Assembly: GCF_988243305.1 (NCBI RefSeq)
Contig: NZ_OZ547136.1
Strand: one strand, 5' to 3'
Length of the DNA stretch: 64,000 nucleotides
This document shows, piece by piece, positions 2,327-60,577 of this stretch. A model generated the notes under the pieces. That model did no database searches. It saw nothing but the letters and a program-made list of their open reading frames with translations, and was not told where the DNA came from. The stretch's first letter is position 1. Each line of letters starts with the position of its first letter. A program made the translations under genes and the position numbers.

Positions 2327-3298
2327 GTGACCATTGCTATTGTTATAGGCACACATGGTTGGGCTGCAGAGCAGTTGCTTAAAACCGCAGAAATGCTGTT
2401 AGGCGAGCAGGAAAACGTCGGCTGGATCGATTTCGTTCCAGGTGAAAATGCCGAAACGCTGATTGAAAAGTACAACGCTCAGTTGGCAAAACTCGACACC
2501 ACTAAAGGCGTGCTGTTTCTCGTTGATACATGGGGAGGCAGCCCGTTCAATGCTGCCAGCCGCATTGTCGTCGACAAAGAGCATTATGAAGTCATTGCAG
2601 GCGTTAACATTCCAATGCTCGTGGAAACGTTAATGGCCCGTGATGATGACCCAAGCTTTGATGAACTGGTGGCGCTGGCAGTAGAAACAGGCCGTGAAGG
2701 CGTGAAAGCTCTGAAAGCCAAACCGGTTGAAAAAGCCGCGCCAGCACCCGCTGCCGCAGCACCAAAAGCGGCTCCAACTCCGGCAAAACCAATGGGACCA
2801 AACGACTACATGGTTATTGGCCTTGCGCGTATCGACGACCGTCTGATTCACGGTCAGGTCGCCACCCGCTGGACCAAAGAAACCAATGTCTCCCGTATTA
2901 TTGTTGTTAGTGATGAAGTGGCTGCGGATACCGTTCGTAAGACACTGCTCACCCAGGTTGCACCTCCGGGCGTAACAGCACACGTAGTTGATGTTGCCAA
3001 AATGATTCGCGTCTACAACAACCCGAAATATGCTGGCGAACGCGTAATGCTGTTATTTACCAACCCAACAGATGTAGAGCGTCTCGTTGAAGGCGGCGTG
3101 AAAATCACCTCTGTTAACGTCGGTGGTATGGCATTCCGTCAGGGTAAAACCCAGGTGAATAACGCGGTTTCGGTTGATGAAAAAGATATCGAGGCGTTCA
3201 AGAAACTGAATGCGCGCGGTATTGAGCTGGAAGTCCGTAAGGTTTCCACCGATCCGAAACTGAAAATGATGGATCTGATCAGCAAAATCGATAAGTAA
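2327..3298 (+). CDS. manX: PTS mannose-specific EIIAB component
   Basis: 323-aa ORF with GTG start preceded by AAGGAGG; Ala/Pro-rich linker between IIA and IIB domains; matches ManX. Confidence 0.97.
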   Translation: MTIAIVIGTHGWAAEQLLKTAEMLLGEQENVGWIDFVPGENAETLIEKYNAQLAKLDTTKGVLFLVDTWGGSPFNAASRIVVDKEHYEVIAGVNIPMLVETLMARDDDPSFDELVALAVETGREGVKALKAKPVEKAAPAPAAAAPKAAPTPAKPMGPNDYMVIGLARIDDRLIHGQVATRWTKETNVSRIIVVSDEVAADTVRKTLLTQVAPPGVTAHVVDVAKMIRVYNNPKYAGERVMLLFTNPTDVERLVEGGVKITSVNVGGMAFRQGKTQVNNAVSVDEKDIEAFKKLNARGIELEVRKVSTDPKLKMMDLISKIDK

Positions 3299-3360
3299 CG
3301 TATTGTGTTGATTATCACTCAGTTTTCACACTTTAGTCTTACGTAAACAGGAGAAGTACA

Positions 3361-4161
3361 ATGGAGATTACCACTCTTCAAATTGTGCTGGTATTTATCG
3401 TAGCCTGTATCGCAGGTATGGGATCAATCCTCGATGAATTTCAGTTTCACCGTCCGCTAATCGCGTGTACCCTGGTGGGTATCGTTCTTGGCGATATGAA
3501 AACCGGTATTATTATCGGTGGTACGCTGGAAATGATCGCGCTGGGCTGGATGAACATCGGTGCTGCAGTTGCGCCTGACGCCGCTCTGGCTTCCATCATT
3601 TCTACCATTCTGGTTATCGCAGGTCATCAGAGCATTGGTGCAGGTATTGCACTGGCAATCCCTCTGGCCGCTGCGGGCCAGGTACTGACCATCATCGTTC
3701 GTACTATTACCGTTGCTTTCCAGCACGCTGCGGATAAGGCTGCTGATAACGGCAACCTGACAGCGATTTCCTGGATCCACGTTTCTTCTCTGTTCCTGCA
3801 AGCAATGCGTGTGGCTATTCCGGCCGTCATCGTTGCGCTGTCTGTTGGTACCAGCGAAGTACAGAACATGCTGAACGCGATTCCGGAAGTGGTGACCAAT
3901 GGTCTGAATATCGCCGGTGGCATGATCGTGGTGGTTGGTTATGCGATGGTTATCAACATGATGCGTGCTGGCTACCTGATGCCGTTCTTCTACCTCGGCT
4001 TCGTAACCGCAGCATTCACCAACTTTAACCTGGTTGCTCTGGGTGTGATTGGTACTGTTATGGCAGTGCTCTACATCCAACTTAGCCCGAAATACAACCG
4101 CGTAGCCGGTGCGCCTGCTCAGGCAGCTGGTAACAACGATCTCGATAACGAACTGGACTAA
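3361..4161 (+). CDS. manY: PTS mannose-specific EIIC component
   Basis: 266-aa polytopic membrane protein directly downstream of manX. Confidence 0.97.
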   Translation: MEITTLQIVLVFIVACIAGMGSILDEFQFHRPLIACTLVGIVLGDMKTGIIIGGTLEMIALGWMNIGAAVAPDAALASIISTILVIAGHQSIGAGIALAIPLAAAGQVLTIIVRTITVAFQHAADKAADNGNLTAISWIHVSSLFLQAMRVAIPAVIVALSVGTSEVQNMLNAIPEVVTNGLNIAGGMIVVVGYAMVINMMRAGYLMPFFYLGFVTAAFTNFNLVALGVIGTVMAVLYIQLSPKYNRVAGAPAQAAGNNDLDNELD

Positions 4162-4164
4162 CAG

Positions 4165-5025
4165 GTGAGCGAAATGGTTGATACAACTCAAACTACCACC
4201 GAGAAAAAACTCACTCAAAGTGATATTCGTGGCGTCTTCCTGCGTTCTAACCTCTTCCAGGGTTCATGGAACTTCGAACGTATGCAGGCACTGGGTTTCT
4301 GCTTCTCTATGGTACCGGCAATTCGTCGACTCTACCCTGAGAACAACGAAGCTCGTAAACAAGCTATTCGCCGTCACCTGGAGTTCTTTAACACCCAGCC
4401 GTTCGTGGCTGCGCCGATTCTCGGCGTAACCCTGGCGCTGGAAGAACAGCGTGCTAATGGCGCAGAGATCGATGACGGTGCTATCAACGGTATCAAAGTC
4501 GGTTTGATGGGGCCGCTGGCTGGTGTAGGCGACCCGATCTTCTGGGGAACCGTACGTCCGGTATTTGCAGCGCTGGGTGCCGGTATCGCAATGAGCGGCA
4601 GCCTGTTAGGTCCGCTGCTGTTCTTCATCTTGTTTAACCTGGTGCGTCTGGCAACCCGTTACTACGGCGTAGCGTATGGTTACTCCAAAGGTATCGATAT
4701 CGTTAAAGATATGGGTGGTGGCTTCCTGCAAAAACTGACGGAAGGGGCGTCTATCCTCGGCCTGTTTGTCATGGGGGCATTAGTTAACAAGTGGACGCAT
4801 GTCAACATCCCGCTGGTTGTCTCTCGCATTACTGACCAGACGGGCAAAGAACACGTTACCACTGTCCAGACTATTCTGGACCAGTTAATGCCAGGCCTGG
4901 TACCACTGCTGCTGACCTTTGCTTGTATGTGGCTACTGCGCAAAAAAGTTAACCCGCTGTGGATCATCGTTGGCTTCTTCGTCATCGGTATCGCTGGTTA
5001 CGCTTGCGGCCTGCTGGGACTGTAA
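4165..5025 (+). CDS. manZ: PTS mannose-specific EIID component
   Basis: 286-aa ORF immediately after manY; operon order manXYZ. Confidence 0.97.
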   Translation: MSEMVDTTQTTTEKKLTQSDIRGVFLRSNLFQGSWNFERMQALGFCFSMVPAIRRLYPENNEARKQAIRRHLEFFNTQPFVAAPILGVTLALEEQRANGAEIDDGAINGIKVGLMGPLAGVGDPIFWGTVRPVFAALGAGIAMSGSLLGPLLFFILFNLVRLATRYYGVAYGYSKGIDIVKDMGGGFLQKLTEGASILGLFVMGALVNKWTHVNIPLVVSRITDQTGKEHVTTVQTILDQLMPGLVPLLLTFACMWLLRKKVNPLWIIVGFFVIGIAGYACGLLGL

Positions 5026-29754: not shown

Positions 29755-30924
29755 ATGTTAAGAGCAACAAAAGTACGCATCTACCCGACACCAGAACAGG
29801 CTGAATTTATCAACGCCCAGTTCGGTGCAGTGCGTTTTGCGTACAACAAAGCTCTGCATATCAAGAAACATTCTTACCAGCGGCACCGCGTAAATTTAAA
29901 CCCGCGTAAAGACCTCAAACCACTGCTTGCAGTGGCGAAGAAATCCCGCCGGTATGGATGGCTTAAAGAATATGATTCTATTGCGTTGCAGCAGGCGGTA
30001 ATTAACCTCGACGTGGCTTTTTCTAACTTTTTCAATCCGAAACTGAAAGCAGGTAAACCAACCTTTAAAAGTAAACACGGCAGACAATCGAGCTATCATT
30101 GTGTTGGCATAAAAGTCCTTGATGGTGCGATAAAAATACCGAAAATCTTGCCGATTGAAGCGCGTTTACATCGTGAAATTACGGGAATGCTGAAAAGTAT
30201 CACGTTGAGCCGCAGCGCAACCGGGAAATACTACGCGTCGTTACTCTGTGACGACGGGATGGAAGCGCCGGCAAAGCCCGCACTGATATCAAATGTGACA
30301 GGGCTGGATATGGGGCTGGCGCATTTTGTCATCAAATCGGACGGCAATAAAATTGCCAGTCCCCGCCACCTAATCAATGCAAGTCGCAACCTGCGCCGGA
30401 AGCAGAAAGCACTGTCCCGTAAGAAAAAAGGGAGCGCAAACAGGCACAAAGCCAGAATACAACTTGCAGCCGTTCACGAACGGGTAGCCAGTGCCCGTGC
30501 CGATTTCCAGCACAAGTTATCTCGCGCAATTGTTGACGAAAACCAAGCGGTAATTGTCGAGACATTGAAAACGGCAAATATGATGAAAAATCACCATCTG
30601 GCTCGTGCGATAGGCGATGCTGGATGGTCTGGATTCATCACAAAACTGGAATACAAAGCAACAGAGAAAGGTGTGCATCTGGTGAAACTGGATCAATGGT
30701 TCGCCAGTTCGAAGACCTGCCACTGCTGCGGTCACAAAATGTCGGAGATGCCATTACATAAGCGCATCTGGCAGTGTCCAGAGTGTGGAGTTGAACATGA
30801 CCGCGATATCAACGCGGCGCTCAACATCAAACGCAAGGGCATACTGGAATTACAAGCGGCGGGACTCGTCGTTTCTGCCCATGGAGGCCAGCGTAAATCC
30901 GTCACACAGACGGTTGCGGCTTAA
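29755..30924 (+). CDS. tnpB: TnpB (OrfB) RNA-guided endonuclease
   Basis: 389-aa ORF with split RuvC-like motifs (GLDMG, VIVE, DRDINAA) and C-terminal CxxC...CxxC zinc finger. Confidence 0.93.
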   Translation: MLRATKVRIYPTPEQAEFINAQFGAVRFAYNKALHIKKHSYQRHRVNLNPRKDLKPLLAVAKKSRRYGWLKEYDSIALQQAVINLDVAFSNFFNPKLKAGKPTFKSKHGRQSSYHCVGIKVLDGAIKIPKILPIEARLHREITGMLKSITLSRSATGKYYASLLCDDGMEAPAKPALISNVTGLDMGLAHFVIKSDGNKIASPRHLINASRNLRRKQKALSRKKKGSANRHKARIQLAAVHERVASARADFQHKLSRAIVDENQAVIVETLKTANMMKNHHLARAIGDAGWSGFITKLEYKATEKGVHLVKLDQWFASSKTCHCCGHKMSEMPLHKRIWQCPECGVEHDRDINAALNIKRKGILELQAAGLVVSAHGGQRKSVTQTVAA

Positions 30925-54885: not shown

Positions 54886-54997
54886 AAATCACTAAAGAAC
54901 GCCCAAGAGCATGTTTTTTATTTAGAAGAATCAAAGCGTTGTATTTCCATGTCATATAAAAATCGGCAAAGTTCATATGTAACAAAGTGTCCCAATC

Positions 54998-55046
54998 ATG
55001 CCCCAAAATGCCCCACAACAAATATTTTTGCCCCATGCATGCCCCA
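54998..55046 (+). repeat. Four direct repeats of (A)TGCCCCA in the prophage arm
   Basis: atgcccca at 54998, 55008, 55039 and tgcccca at 55029. Confidence 0.6.
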
Positions 55047-55067
55047 AAAAATCACTTTCCTTCACCC

Positions 55068-55119
55068 TTGACACTGTTTATCCATACAGTTAAAAATGAT
55101 ACTGTATACAAACACAGTG
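55068..55119 (+). promoter_or_regulatory. Promoter with two tandem LexA boxes upstream of the dinI-like gene
   Basis: TTGACA at 55068-55073; CTGT-N8-ACAG boxes at 55072-55091 (cactgtttatccatacagtt) and 55100-55119 (tactgtatacaaacacagtg); RBS agaggg before the ATG. Confidence 0.75.
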
Positions 55120-55132
55120 TAGAGGGACTTTT

Positions 55133-55381
55133 ATGCGTATTGAAATCTGCATAGCCAAAGAAAAAATGACTAAAATGCCAACCGGTGCTGTGGATGCGTT
55201 AAAGGAAGAATTAACTCGGCGCATCAGTAAGCGTTATGACGATGTAGAAGTGATCGTAAAAGCCACCAGCAATGATGGGCTTTCTGTTACACGCACAGCA
55301 GATAAGGATTCTGCAAAAACATTTGTTCAGGAGACTCTGAAAGATACCTGGGAGTCTGCTGACGAGTGGTTTGTTCACTAA
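55133..55381 (+). CDS. DinI-family DNA-damage-inducible protein (prophage-encoded)
   Basis: 82-aa [12 protein letters not shown]...[11 protein letters not shown] resembling E. coli DinI (MRIEVTIAK...TWESADDWFV). Confidence 0.85.
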
Positions 55382-55449
55382 TAAACACGTAAAATCGGTA
55401 ACGGCTGGAAATCATTCAATACTCGCACTATCGAAAGTTCACCAGCCAA

Positions 55450-55495
55450 CCGCAGCACGTCCTGCATACGTCGTGTCTGCGGTTTTTCTTTTTCG
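55450..55495 (+). terminator. Hairpin and T-run downstream of the dinI-like gene
   Basis: ccgcagcacgtcctgcatacgtcgtgtctgcgg followed by tttttctttttcg. Confidence 0.55.
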
Positions 55496-55496
55496 C

Positions 55497-55766
55497 TTAC
55501 ATTGTGTCTGGTTCTTCCGGCCACTCAATATCAGGTGCAGTTGATGTATCAACACGGTTCAGCAACACCCGATATTTATTCCATGCCTCCAGCAACGATC
55601 TTTCTTCCTCCGTTGCGATTTCCAGATCTACAGCATCCTGCAGTGGCGCAATATACTCACTGAATTCCTGGATGTAGAACTGTGTGGTGACGGTCTTCCA
55701 GCCATTCGGCTCCTGCTGTATCGAAGCATACCAGGCTATTTCAATATCGCTATGCTGCGGCAGCAT
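55497..55766 (-). pseudogene. Tail fiber assembly protein remnant (C-terminal Tfa domain with unrelated N-terminus)
   Basis: C-terminal about 50 aa ([45 protein letters not shown]) near-identical to the full tfa at 56546-57130; about 150 bp of DNA is a direct repeat of the tfa 3' end. Confidence 0.7.
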
Positions 55767-55822
55767 TTAACCCCTTGTAATTCATCGCCATAATTGATTT
55801 AATTCACAAATAAAACTATAAC

Positions 55823-56491
55823 ATGGTGAAATCAATGAAAAAAAACACAGATGATGGGGCTAAAATTTACACACCACTTACCCTAAAGCTTTATGACTGG
55901 TGGGTTTTGGGAGTATCAAATCGGCTTGCATGGGGATGTCCTACAAAGGAACACCTTCTTCCACACTTTCTGGAACATTTAGGTAACAACCATCTGGATA
56001 TTGGTGTTGGAACTGGGTTTTATCTTACTCACGTACCTGAGAGTAGTCTGATATCTTTAATGGATTTGAACGAAGCTAGCCTGAACGCGGCATCTACAAG
56101 GGCTGGGGAATCAAAAATTAAACATAAAATTAGCCATGATGTTTTTGAACCTTATCCCGCGGCGTTACATGGTCAATTTGATTCCATTTCCATGTTTTAC
56201 CTTCTTCACTGCCTGCCTGGAAATATATCTACAAAAAGCTGTGTAATACGCAATGCGGCGCAGGCCTTAACTGACGATGGAACTCTATACGGAGCCACAA
56301 TTCTTGGCGATGGAGTTGTGCACAATAGCTTCGGTCAAAAACTGATGCGCATTTACAATCAGAAAGGCATCTTTTCAAACACAAAAGATTCCGAAGAAGG
56401 CTTAACACATATACTCTCAGAGCATTTCGAGAATGTTAAAACCAAGGTTCAAGGTACTGTAGTAATGTTTTCCGCTTCAGGGAAAAAATAG
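55823..56491 (+). CDS. Class I SAM-dependent methyltransferase of unknown specificity (prophage moron); start may be the ATG at 55835
   Basis: 222-aa ORF with Rossmann motif I (LDIGVGTGFY), acidic post-I residue (LMDLNE) and motif II-like FDSISMFYLLHCLP; no DNA-methyltransferase motifs (DPPY or PC dipeptide); local composition visibly AT-rich. Confidence 0.8.
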   Translation: MVKSMKKNTDDGAKIYTPLTLKLYDWWVLGVSNRLAWGCPTKEHLLPHFLEHLGNNHLDIGVGTGFYLTHVPESSLISLMDLNEASLNAASTRAGESKIKHKISHDVFEPYPAALHGQFDSISMFYLLHCLPGNISTKSCVIRNAAQALTDDGTLYGATILGDGVVHNSFGQKLMRIYNQKGIFSNTKDSEEGLTHILSEHFENVKTKVQGTVVMFSASGKK

Positions 56492-56499
56492 CATCCAAC

Positions 56500-56535
56500 C
56501 GCAGCACGTTCTTGCTTAAGACGTGCTGCGGCATA
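56500..56535 (-). terminator. Hairpin terminator downstream of tfa
   Basis: Perfect 11-bp stem ccgcagcacgt / acgtgctgcgg with a T-run on the minus strand. Confidence 0.6.
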
Positions 56536-56545
56536 ATCCCAATGA

Positions 56546-57130
56546 TTACTCACTGACAGGGTTCGTAGGCCACTCAATATCAGGTGCAGTTGATGTATCA
56601 ACACGGTTCAGCAACACCCGATACTTCTTCCAGGCTTCCAGCAACGAGTTTTCTTCCTCCGTTGCGATTTCCAGATCTGCAGCATCCTGAAGCGGCGCAA
56701 TATGCTCACTGGCTACCTGCATCAGGTTGTTTTTTGTTTCTTCCGCCTCCCGGATCCGGAACAGTTTTTCTGCTTCCGTATCCTTCACCCAGGCTGTGCC
56801 GTTCCACTTCTGAAACTCCCCTTCCGGCGATAACCAGGTAACATTTTCCGGTAACGGACCGAGTTCAGAAATAAATAACGCGTCGCCGGAAGCCACGTCA
56901 TAAACCGTTTTACCCCGATGGTCTTCAAAGAGATGCCACGATGACTCATCACTGTTGAAAACAGCCACGAAGCCAGCAGGAATATCTGGTGGTGCAATAT
57001 CGGTACTGTTTGCTGGCAGACCTGTATGAGGCGGAATATATGCGTCACCTTCACCAATAAATTCATTAGTTCCGGCCAGCAGATTATAAATTTTTATGGT
57101 CCGTGGTTGTTCACTCATTCTGAATGCCAT
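56546..57130 (-). CDS. tfa: Tail fiber assembly protein Tfa
   Basis: 194-aa ORF overlapping the stf stop by 1 nt; matches lambdoid Tfa. Confidence 0.92.
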
Positions 57131-59826
57131 TATGCAAGCCTCACAATGTAGTTAAATGCGATGTTTTTGACGGTGTTTTCCGCGTTACCCGCAGCGTTAA
57201 CGGTGATGGTATGTCCATGTGAACCAATCGCAACGGAGTGCGTATGAGCACCAATACCGACAGTATGCGCGTGTGCACCTGCAGATGCTGCTGTGCCGGA
57301 CAGTGAGTGGCTATGATTACCATCTGTACTGGTATTCGCTAACCACCCCGTAGACATACCTACTGAGCCTTGTACACCCCAGGTATTTTGACCTGAGCTT
57401 GTATAACCATATTGATAAGTATCTTTAAAAACACTGGGGTTAAATCGACGGCCATCTCTATGGCTGTGATTACCAGCTGCATTCGTGCTGCCACTTAAAC
57501 TATGGGTATGCGCACCAGTGTTATTCGTGGATTTAGTGCCGTAATCAAACGACGATGTGGTTTTCGTCCCCAAATCCGTACTGGATGCGCTGGCGCTGTG
57601 GGTGTGCGATTTAATGCCGTCCCGTTCCTGAGACAATACGGCACGACCACTGGCAGGTTTGCCCTTAATCGTCCAGCCACGCATATCAGGGATCACGCCT
57701 GACGGATAAGCGGCTGCAAGTTCCGGGTAGGCAGATTTGTCAAAAGTCTGCCCCTGCATCAGGGCATAACCAGACGGAACGGTATCCGATGGCCACGGGA
57801 TTGGTGCGCCAGGCGGATAAAACTGCTCTGATGGCGTATAGAGTGAATAAACTGTACCGTCCGTTAACCCTTCCGGCTTATTAGCAGAATATGCTGGTGA
57901 CGTATGAATCGTCACGCTGGCATTACTGGTATAATCCCATTGAATATTTACACCAGTCGCATAATTTCCGATTGCAACGTAAATATCGTAAGTATCACCA
58001 GATGTATTGACCCAGGCAAAATTTGTAAACCCTGTCGATGTGCGCTGCCATAAAGCACCAGTAATCCCCTTCGGATTACCATTACCTGCACGCAAAACAA
58101 GTTCAGATATACCTGCCTGTTGAGGTGAACCGACGTTAAATCCAGCGCCACCAATCAACGTAATTGAAACAACAGAACTCGCCTGTGGCATGGTTACCGT
58201 TGCTAATTTGAACCAACCAGCACCACCGCTGAATGACATTGTTGTTGAGTTAAGCGTACCAATATCTTTCGGCGTCAGTGTTATATCCTCCGAAAGCGCC
58301 TTACCATTCACCTTACGGTCAGAAGGTACCCGATCATTCGCATTGTCATTCGCTGCTTTAACTGCCTTCGGTGTCGCGGCAAGCGTTTCAGACGTACTGT
58401 TTGTCGCACTGCTGAGCTGTACTATCCCCTTTTTCGTCGTGCTCGCATCCTCAAGCGCCACGGCGGATGCAATATCCTCTGCCCGTTTTGCCGCTGTCTC
58501 AGCGCGCGTTGCTGCGGATTCTGCCGTACTTTTGCTCTGTGCTGCCGCTGTCGCACTGCCAGCAGCCTCTGTCGCCTTTGTGGATGCCGTCGTGGCGCTG
58601 CTCTTCGCTGCTGACGCCTGTCTGGTCGCCTCATCTTTTGAAGCAGACGCCGATGATGCCGATGACGCCGCCGAACTGGCGGACGATGCCGCTGCCGTTT
58701 TTGAGGATTCTGCGCTGGTTTCCGACGCTTTCGCGTTCGTTTCGGATGTCTTCGCTGAGGAAGCAGACCTCGCTGCTGCGCTGGCCTGTTCAGTGGCTTC
58801 GCCAGTCTTCGTTGTGGCTGTTGAAGCGGATGATGCGGCGCTTTCTGCCGATTTTCCGGCGGCGGTGGCACTGACTGAGGCCTGCCCGGCACTTGTTGAT
58901 GCGGCACTGGCGGACGACGCAGCCGCTGTTTTTGAATCTGCCGCAGCTGAGGCACTCTGTCCCGCTGCCGTTTCAGAAGACCTGGCGTTCGTCTCGGACG
59001 TTTTGGCCGCCTTCGCAGAATTTGCTGTCGCCGTTGCCGAGGAAGCTGCGCTGCTGGCGCTCGAGGCTGCGCTCGTTTCTGATGATTTTGCCGCCTCTTT
59101 TGAAGCCGACGCATCCCGGGCTGAGGTGGCAGCTTCTGACGCTTTCGTGGTCGCGGTGGATGCAGAAGTGGCTGCTGATTGTTGTGACGCTGCGGCATTC
59201 GTTTCTGACGTTTTCGCCGCAGCGGCACTGGTGGCCGCCGCGCTTTTTGAGGACTCTGCAGCGGCAGCACTTTTTTCCGCTTCAGTGGCCTTTGTTGATG
59301 CCGTTTCTGCGCTGGAAGACGCTGACTGAGCCGACGACGCGGCCTGTCCGGCTGACATGCTGGCTGCGCGTGCTGAGCCTGCAGCATCAGTCGCATGGGT
59401 TGCCGCCTCACGGGCTGATGTGCTGGCATCGCCGGCTGACTTCTTCGCGGCTGCCGTGTTCTGTGCCACTGCGGACGCGTTACGCTCCACCTCTTCCACC
59501 ATCACTTCAAAACGGCGCAGTGCCTCCGGTCGGACATCATCCTCCGTCATGGCACCGAGAAAATCATTCAGCGTACCTGGTCTGGAACCTTCATAGACGG
59601 TAATGGTCCCGGCATGTGAAGGCGGAAAACCTTCAACCAGCAGGGTGACGCTGTACTGACCATGCTCAACATCCATGCTGTAACGTCCGGCTTCATCCGG
59701 ATTTTCAGAGGCCACCGTGTTCACCACCACCGTGCTGCTGGTTCGTCTGGCCTTCAGCACAATGGTGCAGTTCTGTACTGGTTTTCCTGTGCCATCTTTA
59801 AGCACGCCAGAAATTTTTACTGTCAT
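57130..59826 (-). CDS. stf: Side tail fiber protein Stf
   Basis: 898-aa ORF with conserved N-terminus ([17 protein letters not shown]...), long Ser/Ala/Thr-rich repeat region, and C-terminal HxH-repeat region (HTHS, GAHTHS, GNHSHS, GSHGHT). Confidence 0.93.
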
Positions 59827-59977: not shown

Positions 59978-60577
59978 TCAGAAACGGTATCCGATACCAA
60001 CAATAAATGCATCCGTTCGCCAGTCGCCACTACCGGAACCTTCATAAGCAAGGTCAATGGTCACGGATTCGGTCGGGTTAAACTGCACGCCAGCCCCCCA
60101 CGCCAGAGACGTGTTGCTGTGGCGACCGTCATCACTTCCGGTCAGCACATCGTGCGTTTTCCCCTTGTTGTCAGTTACGCGGAGATAATCCCCGGAGAAA
60201 GTCGACACACGGCTGTAAGACACACCCGCCATCGCATACGCGCTGAACCATTCATTCACGCGCACAGACGGCCCCGCCATTACGCTGAACCAGCGGTTAC
60301 GAACGGAATCTTCATGCCAGCGGGTATCGCTGTAACGGGTCAGCTGGCGATTCTTGTCTCCTGCATAGCTGAATGACGTCACCAGCCCCAGTGTGTCCGT
60401 AAACTCATAACGGTATTTCACGTTAATCCCGTTCAGATCATCACTGCCGGGGACGTTCGTCGAGGCATGAAGATACCCCGCGCTCAGCGTGGACTGATGT
60501 TCAGACGCCCATGCAGGCGCACCGGATACGGCCAGACAAATGGCTGCGGACAAAATTGCTGCACAAACTTTACGCAT
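59978..60577 (-). CDS. lom: Outer membrane protein Lom (Ail/PagC/OmpX family)
   Basis: 199-aa ORF with signal peptide and beta-barrel ending in the aromatic residue typical of outer membrane proteins (GIGYRF); position between J and stf as in lambda. Confidence 0.92.
   Translation of the reverse strand: MRKVCAAILSAAICLAVSGAPAWASEHQSTLSAGYLHASTNVPGSDDLNGINVKYRYEFTDTLGLVTSFSYAGDKNRQLTRYSDTRWHEDSVRNRWFSVMAGPSVRVNEWFSAYAMAGVSYSRVSTFSGDYLRVTDNKGKTHDVLTGSDDGRHSNTSLAWGAGVQFNPTESVTIDLAYEGSGSGDWRTDAFIVGIGYRF

Follow-up and report, generated by a model that had tools for sequence, protein, structure and literature searches.

A methyltransferase gene near the tail-fibre end of a prophage is enclosed by two copies of the 3' end of a tail fibre assembly gene (tfa), each followed by a hairpin. 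How did a second tfa end come to lie on the far side of the methyltransferase, and is the small open reading frame (ORF) that it closes a gene or a remnant? We addressed these questions in a 64,000-nucleotide stretch of contig NZ_OZ547136.1 (assembly GCF_988243305.1), referred to below as the window. The locus is probably an ordinary recombination scar, explained by the 3' ends of two tfa alleles and by homologous crossovers.

Organization of the locus

With good confidence, the region is the zone for cargo genes ('morons') that adjoins the tail-fibre genes of a lambda-like prophage lying between yecD and yecE. Read along the minus strand, the direction of the late operon, it contains stf, tfa, hairpin B, the methyltransferase gene (convergent), a divergent promoter spacer, a short ORF here called tfa', hairpin A, and dinI (convergent). 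Of these, stf (57130-59826, minus strand) is the side tail fibre gene, an ORF of 898 aa that encodes the client of Tfa; PGAP names its homologues 'prophage tail fiber N-terminal domain-containing protein'. At 57130 the start of tfa overlaps the stop of stf, which places tfa directly downstream of its fibre gene, and homologous loci are alike. The intact tfa (56546-57130, minus strand) encodes a 194-aa tail fibre assembly protein with a full-length match to the Pfam family Caudo_TAP (PF02413, positions 1-130 of 131, E 5e-44) and a match to phrog_105 (E 2e-99). In the model of Tfa as summarized in PMC9608196, citing North et al. 2019, a variable N-domain binds the fibre and a conserved C-domain trimerises.

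At the opposite end, the dinI-like gene (55133-55381, plus strand, 82 aa) is the left neighbour of the first repeat copy and the outermost gene of the prophage towards yecD. Its product matches NCBIfam NF007893 (DinI) with E 2e-20 and 73 bits, below the curated cut-off of 111, and phrog_189 with E 6e-31. Its homologues in related prophages (L001 and L009-L011) are named 'DinI-like family protein' (WP_001217553.1) by PGAP. Two CTGT-N8-ACAG boxes, at 55074-55089 and 55102-55117, lie beside the gene.

The cargo gene itself is a class I SAM-dependent methyltransferase of the YbcY family (55823-56491, plus strand). The ORF from 55823 has 222 aa, and the true start is probably the ATG at 55835 (218 aa). 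The product matches Pfam Methyltransf_12 (E 6e-9) as well as Methyltransf_23, 25, 11 and 31, and its residues 5-222 correspond to phrog_2132 (E 8e-157). It is 99% identical to a common E. coli protein, and homologues of 218-224 aa occur across Enterobacterales. In Enterobacter and Yersinia chromosomes, distant homologues with 56-67% identity are solitary genes, and none of these has a tfa' beside it. The G+C content of the gene is 38-44%, compared to about 50% in tfa. Searches for a substrate gave NCBIfam matches far below the cut-offs, and comparison with PDB sequences gave only weak matches to UbiG and to juvenile hormone acid methyltransferase (E about 1e-3). The PADLOC defence models, applied to the products of tfa', the methyltransferase gene and dinI, gave only a chance-level match of mad2 to the methyltransferase (E 0.003, 14 bits). 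The YbcY-type methyltransferase is found in about 70% of E. coli genomes.

The AT-rich spacer between the divergent tfa' and methyltransferase genes (55767-55834) holds the sequence TTGATT-17-TATAAC at 55794-55822. The corresponding spacer between ybcY and tfaX of K-12 has identical hexamers, which PMC3946193 lists as a site of sigma-70 RNA polymerase together with H-NS. Conservation of the spacer is 94-100% (median 98.5%) in 78 of 80 viral loci.

Two tfa ends in direct orientation

Repeat copy A (55443-55673) and repeat copy B (56492-56722) are offset by 1049 nt. Each consists of a hairpin left arm, a 55-nt allele-specific patch and a 155-nt tfa C-domain block. The C-domain blocks (55519-55673 and 56568-56722) are direct repeats with 91% identity (BLAST E 3e-58), a homology far beyond short chance similarity, and BLAST detected no third copy in the window. 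The hairpin left arms (55443-55463 and 56492-56512) are repeated at the same offset with 90% identity. The patches between arm and block (55464-55518 and 56513-56567), which comprise the end of the tfa coding sequence and the right arm of the hairpin, represent different alleles with an identity of about 40%. The original prediction of a direct repeat of about 230 bp is therefore accurate for the C-domain block and the hairpin arm, but not for the diverged patch, and the full 231-nt unit is 77% identical in register. In the sister prophages L001 and L011, the entire 231 nt are repeated at 89-90%. The repeat codes for the conserved C-terminal (helical) domain of Tfa and includes the hairpin 3' of it. 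As predicted, each copy holds a tfa 3' end and a hairpin with a common core, and the two copies bracket the methyltransferase gene; copy B closes the intact 194-aa tfa and copy A closes the 89-aa ORF.

The hairpin core AACCGCAGCACGT occurs exactly twice in the 64 kb, against 0.14 occurrences expected. Hairpin A (55448-55484, plus strand) folds with -19 kcal/mol (z -3.5) and sits 13 nt beyond the tfa' stop on the minus strand. Hairpin B (56499-56531, minus strand) has a perfect 11-bp stem, folds with -23.9 kcal/mol on the plus strand and -28.5 kcal/mol on the minus strand (z -5 to -5.7), and sits 15 nt beyond the tfa stop on the minus strand. On the plus strand, hairpin A is directly followed by TTTTTCTTTTT, the U-run reading UUUUUCUUUUU; this is the sole combination of hairpin and strand with an adjacent T-run, and hairpin A is likely the intrinsic terminator of dinI. 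Hairpin B lacks a U-run on the plus (methyltransferase) strand, and the one on the minus strand is distant. The term 'terminator hairpin' used in the original prediction is justified only in part, as hairpin B has no T-run beside it on the strand of the methyltransferase. A consensus terminator scan called neither hairpin. Hairpin B is identical to the 3'-terminal hairpin of CssrB, an unrelated Shigella sRNA model in Rfam, and its position at the 3' end of that model fits a transcription terminator.

The 89-aa ORF as a truncated tfa

The tfa' ORF (55497-55766, minus strand, 89 aa) had been described as a remnant with an unrelated N-terminus, and the comparisons agree. When it was aligned with the 194-aa Tfa by BLASTP, only the last 60 residues matched (47/60 identical, E 2e-30). 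Caudo_TAP covers residues 31-86 only, which are model positions 75-130 of 131, so that by Pfam the fibre-binding N-domain is absent and the conserved C-domain is present. Residues 1-30 have no Pfam match and no detectable relative in Tfa, and a search of 5.8 billion sequences found no longer protein that shares these first 30 codons outside the remnant family. A DNA match annotated as 'tail fibre' (H140), considered as a source of this N-part, turned out to be a deletion variant. In LF82-type loci, homology ends 15 nt into tfa', and the comparison does not tell which state is older.

The tfa' genes form a conserved family that travels with the methyltransferase. The ORF matches positions 1-86 of 88 of phrog_2341 (E 6e-60), its K-12 homologue is tfaX (b0563), and the frame is intact even in an 83%-identical copy of a P2-like prophage. 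This conservation raises the alternative, which we regard as unlikely, that tfa' is an independent working gene for a C-domain-only mini-Tfa. This protein might help in general, or might interfere as a dominant-negative partner with the fibre assembly of competing phages. The similarity to tfa would then be domain conservation, and the 'repeat' a by-product of two adjacent related genes. The PHROG family of its own, the name 'protein TfaX' in MG1655, and the open frame with an overall dN/dS of 0.28 relative to the P2-like copy are consistent with such a gene. So are the plausible Shine-Dalgarno sequence of most copies (AAGGGG 5 nt before the ATG), the polymerase-bound K-12 spacer as a promoter candidate towards tfaX, and the retention of exactly the putative trimerisation domain.

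Several features argue against it. The 3' end of tfa' exists in at least six different forms, and among 90 copies about one in four is broken by Q29*, a frameshift or a truncation at the junction; tfaX of the K-12 strain ER1709 is annotated with an internal stop. The unique N-part has 13 nonsynonymous and 7 synonymous events (P 0.07), not significantly off neutral, and neither this polymorphism count over the 90 copies nor the pairwise dN/dS against the P2-like copy gave significant selection on the unique part. The low dN/dS of the C-part is confounded, because it can be inherited from working tfa alleles through exchange by recombination. The domain that would bind a fibre is missing, and the distant methyltransferase homologues do without an adjoining tfa'. 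The family is thus conserved as an entity (phrog_2341, TfaX), but its variable ends, its disruptions and the lack of clear selection speak against an independent gene. We infer that tfa' is a 5'-truncated tfa remnant, a passenger rather than a working gene. A related idea, that a TfaX-type protein joins the Tfa or fibre assemblies of other phages and either poisons them, as a superinfection defence, or rescues them, seems quite improbable; if true, TfaX activity would explain the retention of tfa' beside a cargo gene in most E. coli genomes.

Prophages with and without the insert

A search for related prophages that lack the insert, as proposed with the original prediction, found them at the same chromosomal site. 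Among the prophages at yecD/yecE, L009 and L010/L098 are empty, and L001, L011/L099 and the window are filled. The dinI, tfa and stf genes of both sets are colinear with the product of an in-silico deletion between the repeats. This deletion removes 1049 bp and leaves an intact 194-aa tfa. Among the 40 best-matching genomes listed, 34 are colinear with its product in one uninterrupted alignment, and 103 genomes cover at least 80% of it, some of these being filled loci in which two pieces were joined. The empty L098 and the filled L099 have the integrase in common and are 99.27% identical over 16 kb of tail genes; their flank alignments overlap by a single 220-nt repeat copy, and the empty prophage has one copy. 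Such pairs represent a presence/absence polymorphism in which the direction, gain or loss, is not readable from the sequences. The expectation that the repeats offer a site for future loss is compatible with the existing insert-free prophages and the intact tfa that a deletion would leave.

The single copy in L010 is B-like almost to the hairpin left arm, and the switch to the dinI flank lies inside that arm. If L010 derives from an L011-like prophage that lost the unit by deletion, no more than about 17-40 nt of homology were available to the crossover.

Copy A of the window looks chimeric when the alleles are compared. Its hairpin and 55-nt patch are the allele of the empty site L009, and from 55575 onward it carries the tfa' allele of the cassette. 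Other tfa' copies that share the EEPDTM end change allele near codon 37. At the diagnostic sites 55557, 55562 and 55566, the divergent P2-like tfa' has the state of the window; these three shared states may be ancestral, which weakens the argument for a chimera.

Distribution and breakpoints

The core of the unit, defined as the 5' part of tfa', the spacer, the methyltransferase gene and hairpin B, occurs, at a minimum identity of 95%, in 3796 of 5426 complete E. coli genomes (about 70%), with up to four copies per genome. The core is 98-100% identical in every context, the flanking C-domains 87-98%. The methyltransferase gene and the hairpin B arm are constant in all of 80 viral contigs, and the constant N-part of tfa' adjoins the methyltransferase gene in 77 of them. 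Colinearity in these viral loci ends at 55426, 55518-55542, 56531-56537 and 56643-56691; the breaks fall mostly inside the tfa C-domains or at hairpin edges, and the flanks vary. A matching architecture is found in the lambdoid phage genomes PhiR26_1, PhiR68_2 and 2G7b and in O157:H7. A P2-like prophage remnant near smpB has a 92% identical module that extends from the stf 3' end through dinI. Judged from the identical tfa' allele and N-part in dozens of unrelated flanks, tfa' with its N-part appears to have a single origin elsewhere.

These comparisons bear on the claim of a direct duplication, which does not hold: the copies are two tfa alleles, 9% apart, rather than a local duplication. This divergence resembles that between the lambda tfa/stf region and the window (92.5-92.7% identity). 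A tandem duplication of tfa within this prophage, followed by insertion of the methyltransferase gene and decay of the distal copy, would account for the direct orientation and for the matching register, hairpin included. It is, however, highly unlikely, as the identity between copies at matching positions of different genomes is 97-100%, the tfa' allele stays constant, together with its unrelated N-part, in all those unrelated contexts, and the two 55-nt patches of the window are different alleles that both occur as natural ends of full-length tfa genes.

The conserved hairpin could instead be a recombination site similar to the integron attC, with the hairpin-to-hairpin unit moved site-specifically. 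Many breaks do lie at the outer hairpin edges (55426 in 33 of the 80 loci, 56531-56537 in 12), and the single copy of L010 passes from the dinI flank into B-type sequence within the hairpin left arm. We consider such a site extremely unlikely. Equally many breaks lie within the C-domain coding sequence, the boundaries are found throughout the 231-nt repeat, the stem has no more than 11-12 bp, and there is no recombinase ORF between yecD and lom; the same hairpin at the 3' end of the CssrB model fits a terminator. With no recombinase nearby and no fixed boundary site, the unit does not resemble an integron-type or other site-specific cassette. That the second tfa end is a relic of a Pin/Gin/Cin-type invertible segment with alternative fibre tips and chaperones is barely credible: a Pin-type serine recombinase lies between tfa and the methyltransferase gene in PhiR68_2 and in phages Kati and Turner, but the copies here are direct and not inverted, the window has neither an invertase nor an alternative fibre tip, and the PhiR68_2 invertase is extra cargo between the two direct tfa ends. 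Both tandem duplication and an invertible segment were already disfavoured.

A proposed history

Homology, architecture, presence/absence polymorphism at one site and breakpoint clustering are the observations that a history of the locus has to accommodate; that the crossovers were homologous-recombination events, and the order in which things happened, we infer. In a first step, one old illegitimate join would have put the 3' third of a tfa at the promoter side of a free-standing methyltransferase gene, producing a tfa'-methyltransferase unit. The tfa' allele and its own N-part accompany the methyltransferase gene through many phages, which suggests that the truncated tfa' arose once. In a second step, homologous crossovers would have spread the unit between lambdoid and P2-like prophages; their sites would be the conserved sequences of the tfa C-domain and the hairpin, which nearly every phage of these kinds carries. 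A crossover in the right copy would swap the tail fibre and the Tfa N-domain, and one in the left copy would swap the downstream content, here dinI. A crossover between the copies would lose the 1049-bp unit and restore one intact tfa.

The earlier interpretation is largely supported, with qualifications. Entry of the cassette by recombination between tfa homologues is favoured by the empty sites and by the breaks within the repeats, but the local duplication once attached to it is absent and the 89-aa ORF is conserved. The locus is a concrete case of a short conserved coding segment that, with its terminator, can serve as a shared crossover site. Unrelated phages, lambda-like and P2-like, can exchange tail-fibre specificity to one side of it and cargo genes to the other side, and prophages can gain or lose a cargo gene without damage to tfa. 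Presence or absence of the 1049-bp unit is a predictable polymorphism, and one that is likely to confuse assembly and annotation.

Relation to known systems

Lambdoid phages are mosaic, and tail-fibre segments are exchanged horizontally between P2-, Mu- and lambda-like phages. The closest counterpart is tfaD (b0561)-ybcY (b0562)-tfaX (b0563) in the cryptic K-12 prophage DLP12. It has the gene order and orientation of the window, tfa 3' ends on both sides of the methyltransferase gene, and a core that is 98-99% identical at the nucleotide level. In DLP12, however, ybcY is a frameshifted pseudogene, tfaD is fused or 5'-truncated, tfaX has 61 aa and the left neighbour is appY/ompT, whereas in the window the methyltransferase gene and tfa are intact, tfa' encodes 89 aa, and the gene on the left is dinI, at the junction of yecD and yecE. 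Lambda (stf-tfa, orf-314/orf-194) has a Tfa that is colinear with the 194-aa protein, with about 92.5% nucleotide identity over tfa. The lambda matches start only at window position 55519 and hence include no hairpin, and neither a methyltransferase gene nor a second tfa end is reported in lambda. Like the modular Tfa chaperones of lambda, Mu (U) and P2 (G), the Tfa of the window has a variable N-domain and a conserved C-domain.

The cargo gene resembles phage morons in being a low-G+C, self-promoted gene downstream of tail fibre genes. As in other mosaic joints, the junctions coincide with a short conserved coding segment, and the module is common to lambda-like and P2-like elements. A literature search on morons beside tail fibre assembly genes gave no results. 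The locus is a particularly clean and very widespread example of a moron and mosaic joint, from which nothing essential differs; the arrangement is ordinary and already annotated, and it leaves current understanding unchanged.

The Rfam model RF02111 ('IS009') matches both copies on the tfa strand, with 224.2 bits at 56589-56787 and 115.4 bits at 55540-55743. The gathering threshold is 117 bits, so that copy B is above it and copy A just below. The model also matches within K-12 tfaD. As evidence for an sRNA these matches were rejected, since they lie inside the tfa coding sequence on the coding strand, and we take IS009 as a label for the conserved tfa segment. Assignment of the locus to a known RNA family (IS009 or a partial CssrB) was likewise set aside, the matches being explained by tfa coding sequence and the shared terminator hairpin. 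Annotation of this region also includes small 'capsid' and 'nucleocapsid' ORFs that PGAP calls across the hairpins, beside the tfa segment that Rfam labels as the 'gene' IS009.

Direct repeats around the methyltransferase gene

The E. coli chromosomal genes nudB, aspS and yecD extend to about 54.8 kb, after which the right end of a lambda-like prophage, inserted in yecE, begins. There, a dinI-like gene (55133-55381, + strand) is followed by hairpin A (55448-55484), an 89-aa ORF designated tfa' (55497-55766, -), an AT-rich spacer of 56 nt, a class I SAM-dependent methyltransferase gene of 222 codons (55823-56491, +), hairpin B (56499-56531), the intact 194-aa tail fibre assembly gene tfa (56546-57130, -), the 898-aa side tail fibre gene stf (57130-59826, -) and lom (59978-60577, -). 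A repeat finder and BLAST agree on a direct repeat of 155 nt at 55519-55673 (copy A) and 56568-56722 (copy B), with 91% identity (E 3e-58), and neither found a third copy across the whole 64-kb window. The left hairpin arm is duplicated in register at 55443-55463 and 56492-56512 (offset 1049), and its core, AACCGCAGCACGT, occurs exactly twice in the window against 0.14 expected. The 55 nt separating arm from block, which hold the end of tfa (its final five or six codons) together with the right hairpin arm, are dissimilar between the copies, so the 231-nt unit is only 77% identical overall. Similarity between the 89-aa ORF and the 194-aa Tfa is confined to the final 60 residues, 47 of them identical. 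Residues 31-86 of the short ORF align with positions 75-130 of the 131-position Pfam model Caudo_TAP, of which the full Tfa covers positions 1-130. On these comparisons, the original description was accurate to a few bases and needs a single amendment: the proposed length of about 230 bp includes the diverged inner patch.

The 155-nt block codes for the conserved C-terminal domain of Tfa. In the account of these chaperones in PMC9608196 (citing North et al. 2019), a variable N-terminal domain binds the tip of the cognate fibre, and the conserved C-terminal helical domain is thought to drive trimerisation. A 2.6-kb query from the window matched at 30386 places, spread over 5425 of the 5426 complete E. 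coli genomes, and the block is among the most widely shared pieces of E. coli phage DNA. The Rfam 'gene' family IS009 (RF02111) scores 224 bits at 56589-56787 (-) and 115 bits at 55540-55743 (-), and also matches within K-12 tfaD (L002 4068-4266, -). IS009 appears to be a conserved tfa coding segment on the coding strand rather than an sRNA.

Both hairpins fold far better than shuffled controls. Only hairpin A is followed by a T-run, on the + strand, and a simple terminator scan called neither. Hairpin B, in the stretch 56500-56556 (-), is base for base the 3'-terminal hairpin of Rfam CssrB, a Shigella chromosomal sRNA, with a model match of 33 bits that is below threshold and covers the hairpin portion only. 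The same terminator-like hairpin has apparently been reused among unrelated transcripts. PGAP annotates small ORFs of 35-51 aa across both hairpins (55378-55524 and 56449-56604, both -), with equivalents in strain 774 (L001 3579-3686 and 4637-4774) and K-12 (L002 3915-4052). They bear the names 'capsid protein', 'hypothetical protein' or 'nucleocapsid protein', lie out of frame with the tfa 3' ends that they overlap, and are probably spurious.

A known arrangement in many genomes

The arrangement matches tfaD (b0561)-ybcY (b0562)-tfaX (b0563) of the cryptic prophage DLP12 in K-12, in which ybcY is a pseudogene. Of 5426 complete genomes, 3796 carry the core of the cassette, defined as the 5' part of tfa', the spacer, the methyltransferase gene and hairpin B (55674-56567), with 95% identity or more and a coverage of at least 80%; single genomes have as many as four copies. 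The core is also found in the lambdoid phage genomes PhiR26_1, PhiR68_2 and 2G7b and in O157:H7. The feature is an ordinary mosaic joint of E. coli prophages that is already annotated. In other strains, the interval between tfa and the methyltransferase unit serves as a cargo dump: that of O157:H7 SS17 (L008 3845-8230) holds a manganese catalase gene, two ferritin-like genes and a stress protein gene, and that of PhiR68_2 (L004 2562-5833) holds a Pin-type invertase gene and a ynaE-like gene. ISEc8 adjoins tfa' in O157:H7.

The module is not confined to lambda-like prophages. A P2-like prophage remnant near smpB (L014-L017, about 2600-4640) carries a fibre tip, tfa, the methyltransferase gene, an 89-aa tfa' and dinI, in an arrangement colinear with 55066-57267 and 92% identical to it. 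For the single genes, identity is 98.8% in the methyltransferase gene, 90% in tfa and 86% in tfa'. Myovirus-type and lambda-type elements thus have the whole module in common.

Empty and filled sites

Deleting the 1049-bp cassette between the repeats in silico joins dinI, hairpin A and the copy A C-domain to the 5' part of tfa, and the 194-aa ORF is retained. Of the 40 best-matching genomes listed, 34 contain this empty form colinearly and unbroken. At least 80% of it is covered in 103 genomes, some of which are filled loci joined from two pieces, and several matches have the same yecD/yecE site and an identical DinI-like protein. At that site, L009 and L010 are empty, while strain 774, strain 09-02E (L011) and the window are filled. 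A near-isogenic pair, AR_0372 (L098, empty) and 09-02E (L099, filled), shares the same integrase and Stf accession and is 99.27% identical across 16 kb of the tail region; the left and right alignments overlap by 220 nt in the empty genome, which is one repeat copy. The filled arrangement covers at least 80% of the 2.6-kb query in 10 genomes. Among prophages with the dinI-tfa junction, empty sites are therefore commoner than filled ones (most of 103 versus 10 genomes), an excess that fits acquisition in this lineage. The direction of change, gain or loss, cannot be read from the sequences in any given pair.

A constant core with variable flanks

Measured against the window in 17 annotated loci, the core shows 98-100% identity and the two C-domains 87-100%. 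In methyltransferase-bearing viral contigs (the best 80 of 110 confirmed relatives that came from a peptide-pattern scan), colinearity with the window extends to the N-part of tfa' in 77 and to the hairpin B arm in all 80, but to the complete right-hand C-domain in only 32. Colinearity ends on the left at 55426 (n=33), 55518-55519 (n=18) or 55542 (n=12), and on the right at 56531-56537 (n=12), 56643-56691 (n=36) or about 57331 (n=21). The breaks thus coincide with the edges of the hairpins, the interior of the C-domains or the tip of stf.

The 55-nt patches are of two kinds: the T-type ends EEPDTM and its hairpin is followed by a T-run, and the C-type ends TNPVSE or ANPVRE. Both are found as natural ends of full-length tfa. 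Copy A of the window is T-type, as is the single copy in the empty site of L009, and copy B is C-type; both copies are C-type in the sister prophages L001 and L011. Copies A and B are different tfa alleles. The hairpin and patch of copy A match L009, and from 55575 onward it matches the cassette tfa' allele; in other tfa' copies ending EEPDTM, the allele switch occurs much further 5', near codon 37. Three sites place the window switch at 55566-55575, but since the divergent P2-like tfa' has the same state at these sites, the switch may lie anywhere from the patch to 55575. The two copies of L011 (4290-4570 and 5340-5620) have the patch GGATTTGCA in common in the last tfa codons, whereas those of L001 differ there, a pattern suggestive of gene conversion from one direct repeat to the other.

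The methyltransferase gene

The methyltransferase belongs to phrog_2132. The K-12 spacer between ybcY and tfaX has been mapped as a binding site of sigma-70 RNA polymerase, with H-NS (PMC3946193), and its ybcY-side hexamers, TTGATT-17-TATAAC, are also present in the window at 55794-55822. The -10 hexamer ends at 55822 and so touches the called ATG (55823). Four codons further on, at 55835, lies another ATG, preceded by GGTGA, where the PHROG profile begins and where most homologues, which are 218 aa long, also start; the called start is therefore probably four codons too early, and the real product would be 218 aa. The G+C content of the gene is 38-44%, against about 50% in tfa. In Enterobacter (L100-L102) and Yersinia (L106-L108), distant homologues (56-67% identical) are chromosomal genes that stand alone. 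The Salmonella homologue (L103-L105) lies in a prophage end beside an integrase gene, with a Ricin-B lectin gene nearby and a DUF4376 gene in L103. The family is widespread in Enterobacterales, and tfa' does not stand beside the homologue in any of these Enterobacter, Yersinia and Salmonella loci.

Is tfa' a gene?

That tfa' encodes a working mini-Tfa is improbable, even though it constitutes its own PHROG family (phrog_2341), is annotated as the protein TfaX in K-12, has a plausible ribosome-binding site and an overall dN/dS of 0.28, and keeps an open frame in the 83%-identical P2-like copy. The evidence against function is stronger than that from conservation. Across 90 copies, tfa' has at least six different 3' ends, and nonsense codons, frameshifts or junctions truncate about a quarter of the copies; for that in ER1709 (K-12), the annotation gives an internal stop. 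The 31 codons absent from tfa carry 13 nonsynonymous and 7 synonymous changes, with no significant departure from neutrality (P 0.07), and the C-part can owe its low dN/dS to recombination with working tfa genes. By Pfam coverage, the fibre-binding domain is missing, and the distant methyltransferase homologues have no tfa' beside them. Our conclusion is that tfa' is a remnant carried along as a passenger, attached to the methyltransferase gene on its promoter side. The 89-aa ORF had been described as a remnant; this holds, although as a conserved family it is a hitch-hiker and not a random remnant.

Proposed origin and movement of the cassette

We infer a history in which a free-standing methyltransferase gene would have been captured downstream of tfa; its low G+C content and its own promoter fit this. 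A single illegitimate join would then have set the 3' third of another tfa beside the promoter side of the gene. Afterwards, ordinary homologous recombination within the conserved sequence of C-domain and hairpin could have moved the unit among phages, swapped its neighbours, and added or removed it. To fill an empty site would take two single crossovers, one after the other, between phages resident in the same cell, with a viable genome after each; to empty a filled site, one crossover between the direct repeats would suffice. Empty sites, the near-isogenic pair, the constant core with variable flanks, the two alleles, the switch points inside the C-domain and the sharing across phage types all speak for the repeats being recombination joints. 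The proposal that the cassette entered by recombination between tfa homologues was largely right, but the supposed duplication consists of two tfa alleles, one of them truncated. Tandem duplication of tfa in situ is disfavoured, since the copies diverge by 9% and the tfa' allele has a single origin. A site-specific mechanism directed by the hairpins is likewise disfavoured, with no recombinase nearby and breakpoints spread across the repeat. The direct orientation of the repeats disfavours descent from an invertible fibre segment, and the Pin-type invertase gene of PhiR68_2 is an added cargo gene flanked by the same pair of direct ends.

Other features of the prophage end

The dinI-like gene is preceded by a promoter-like site, TTGACA-18-AAAAAT (55068-55117 region), overlapped and then trailed by LexA-box-like CTGT-N8-ACAG motifs at 55074-55089 and 55102-55117, and is likely under SOS control. 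Just on the prophage side of the chromosome junction, beside the truncated yecE, TGCCCCA occurs four times (54999, 55009, 55029 and 55040) inside a 21-nt imperfect direct repeat at 54988-55049; these may be arm-type integrase binding sites. The middle of stf is long, repetitive and rich in Ala, Ser and Thr, with 84-90% identity to related prophages against 97-99% at the ends, and spurious ORFs of considerable length arise from it, both on the opposite strand and in other frames (58190-59329, +; 58422-59429, -).
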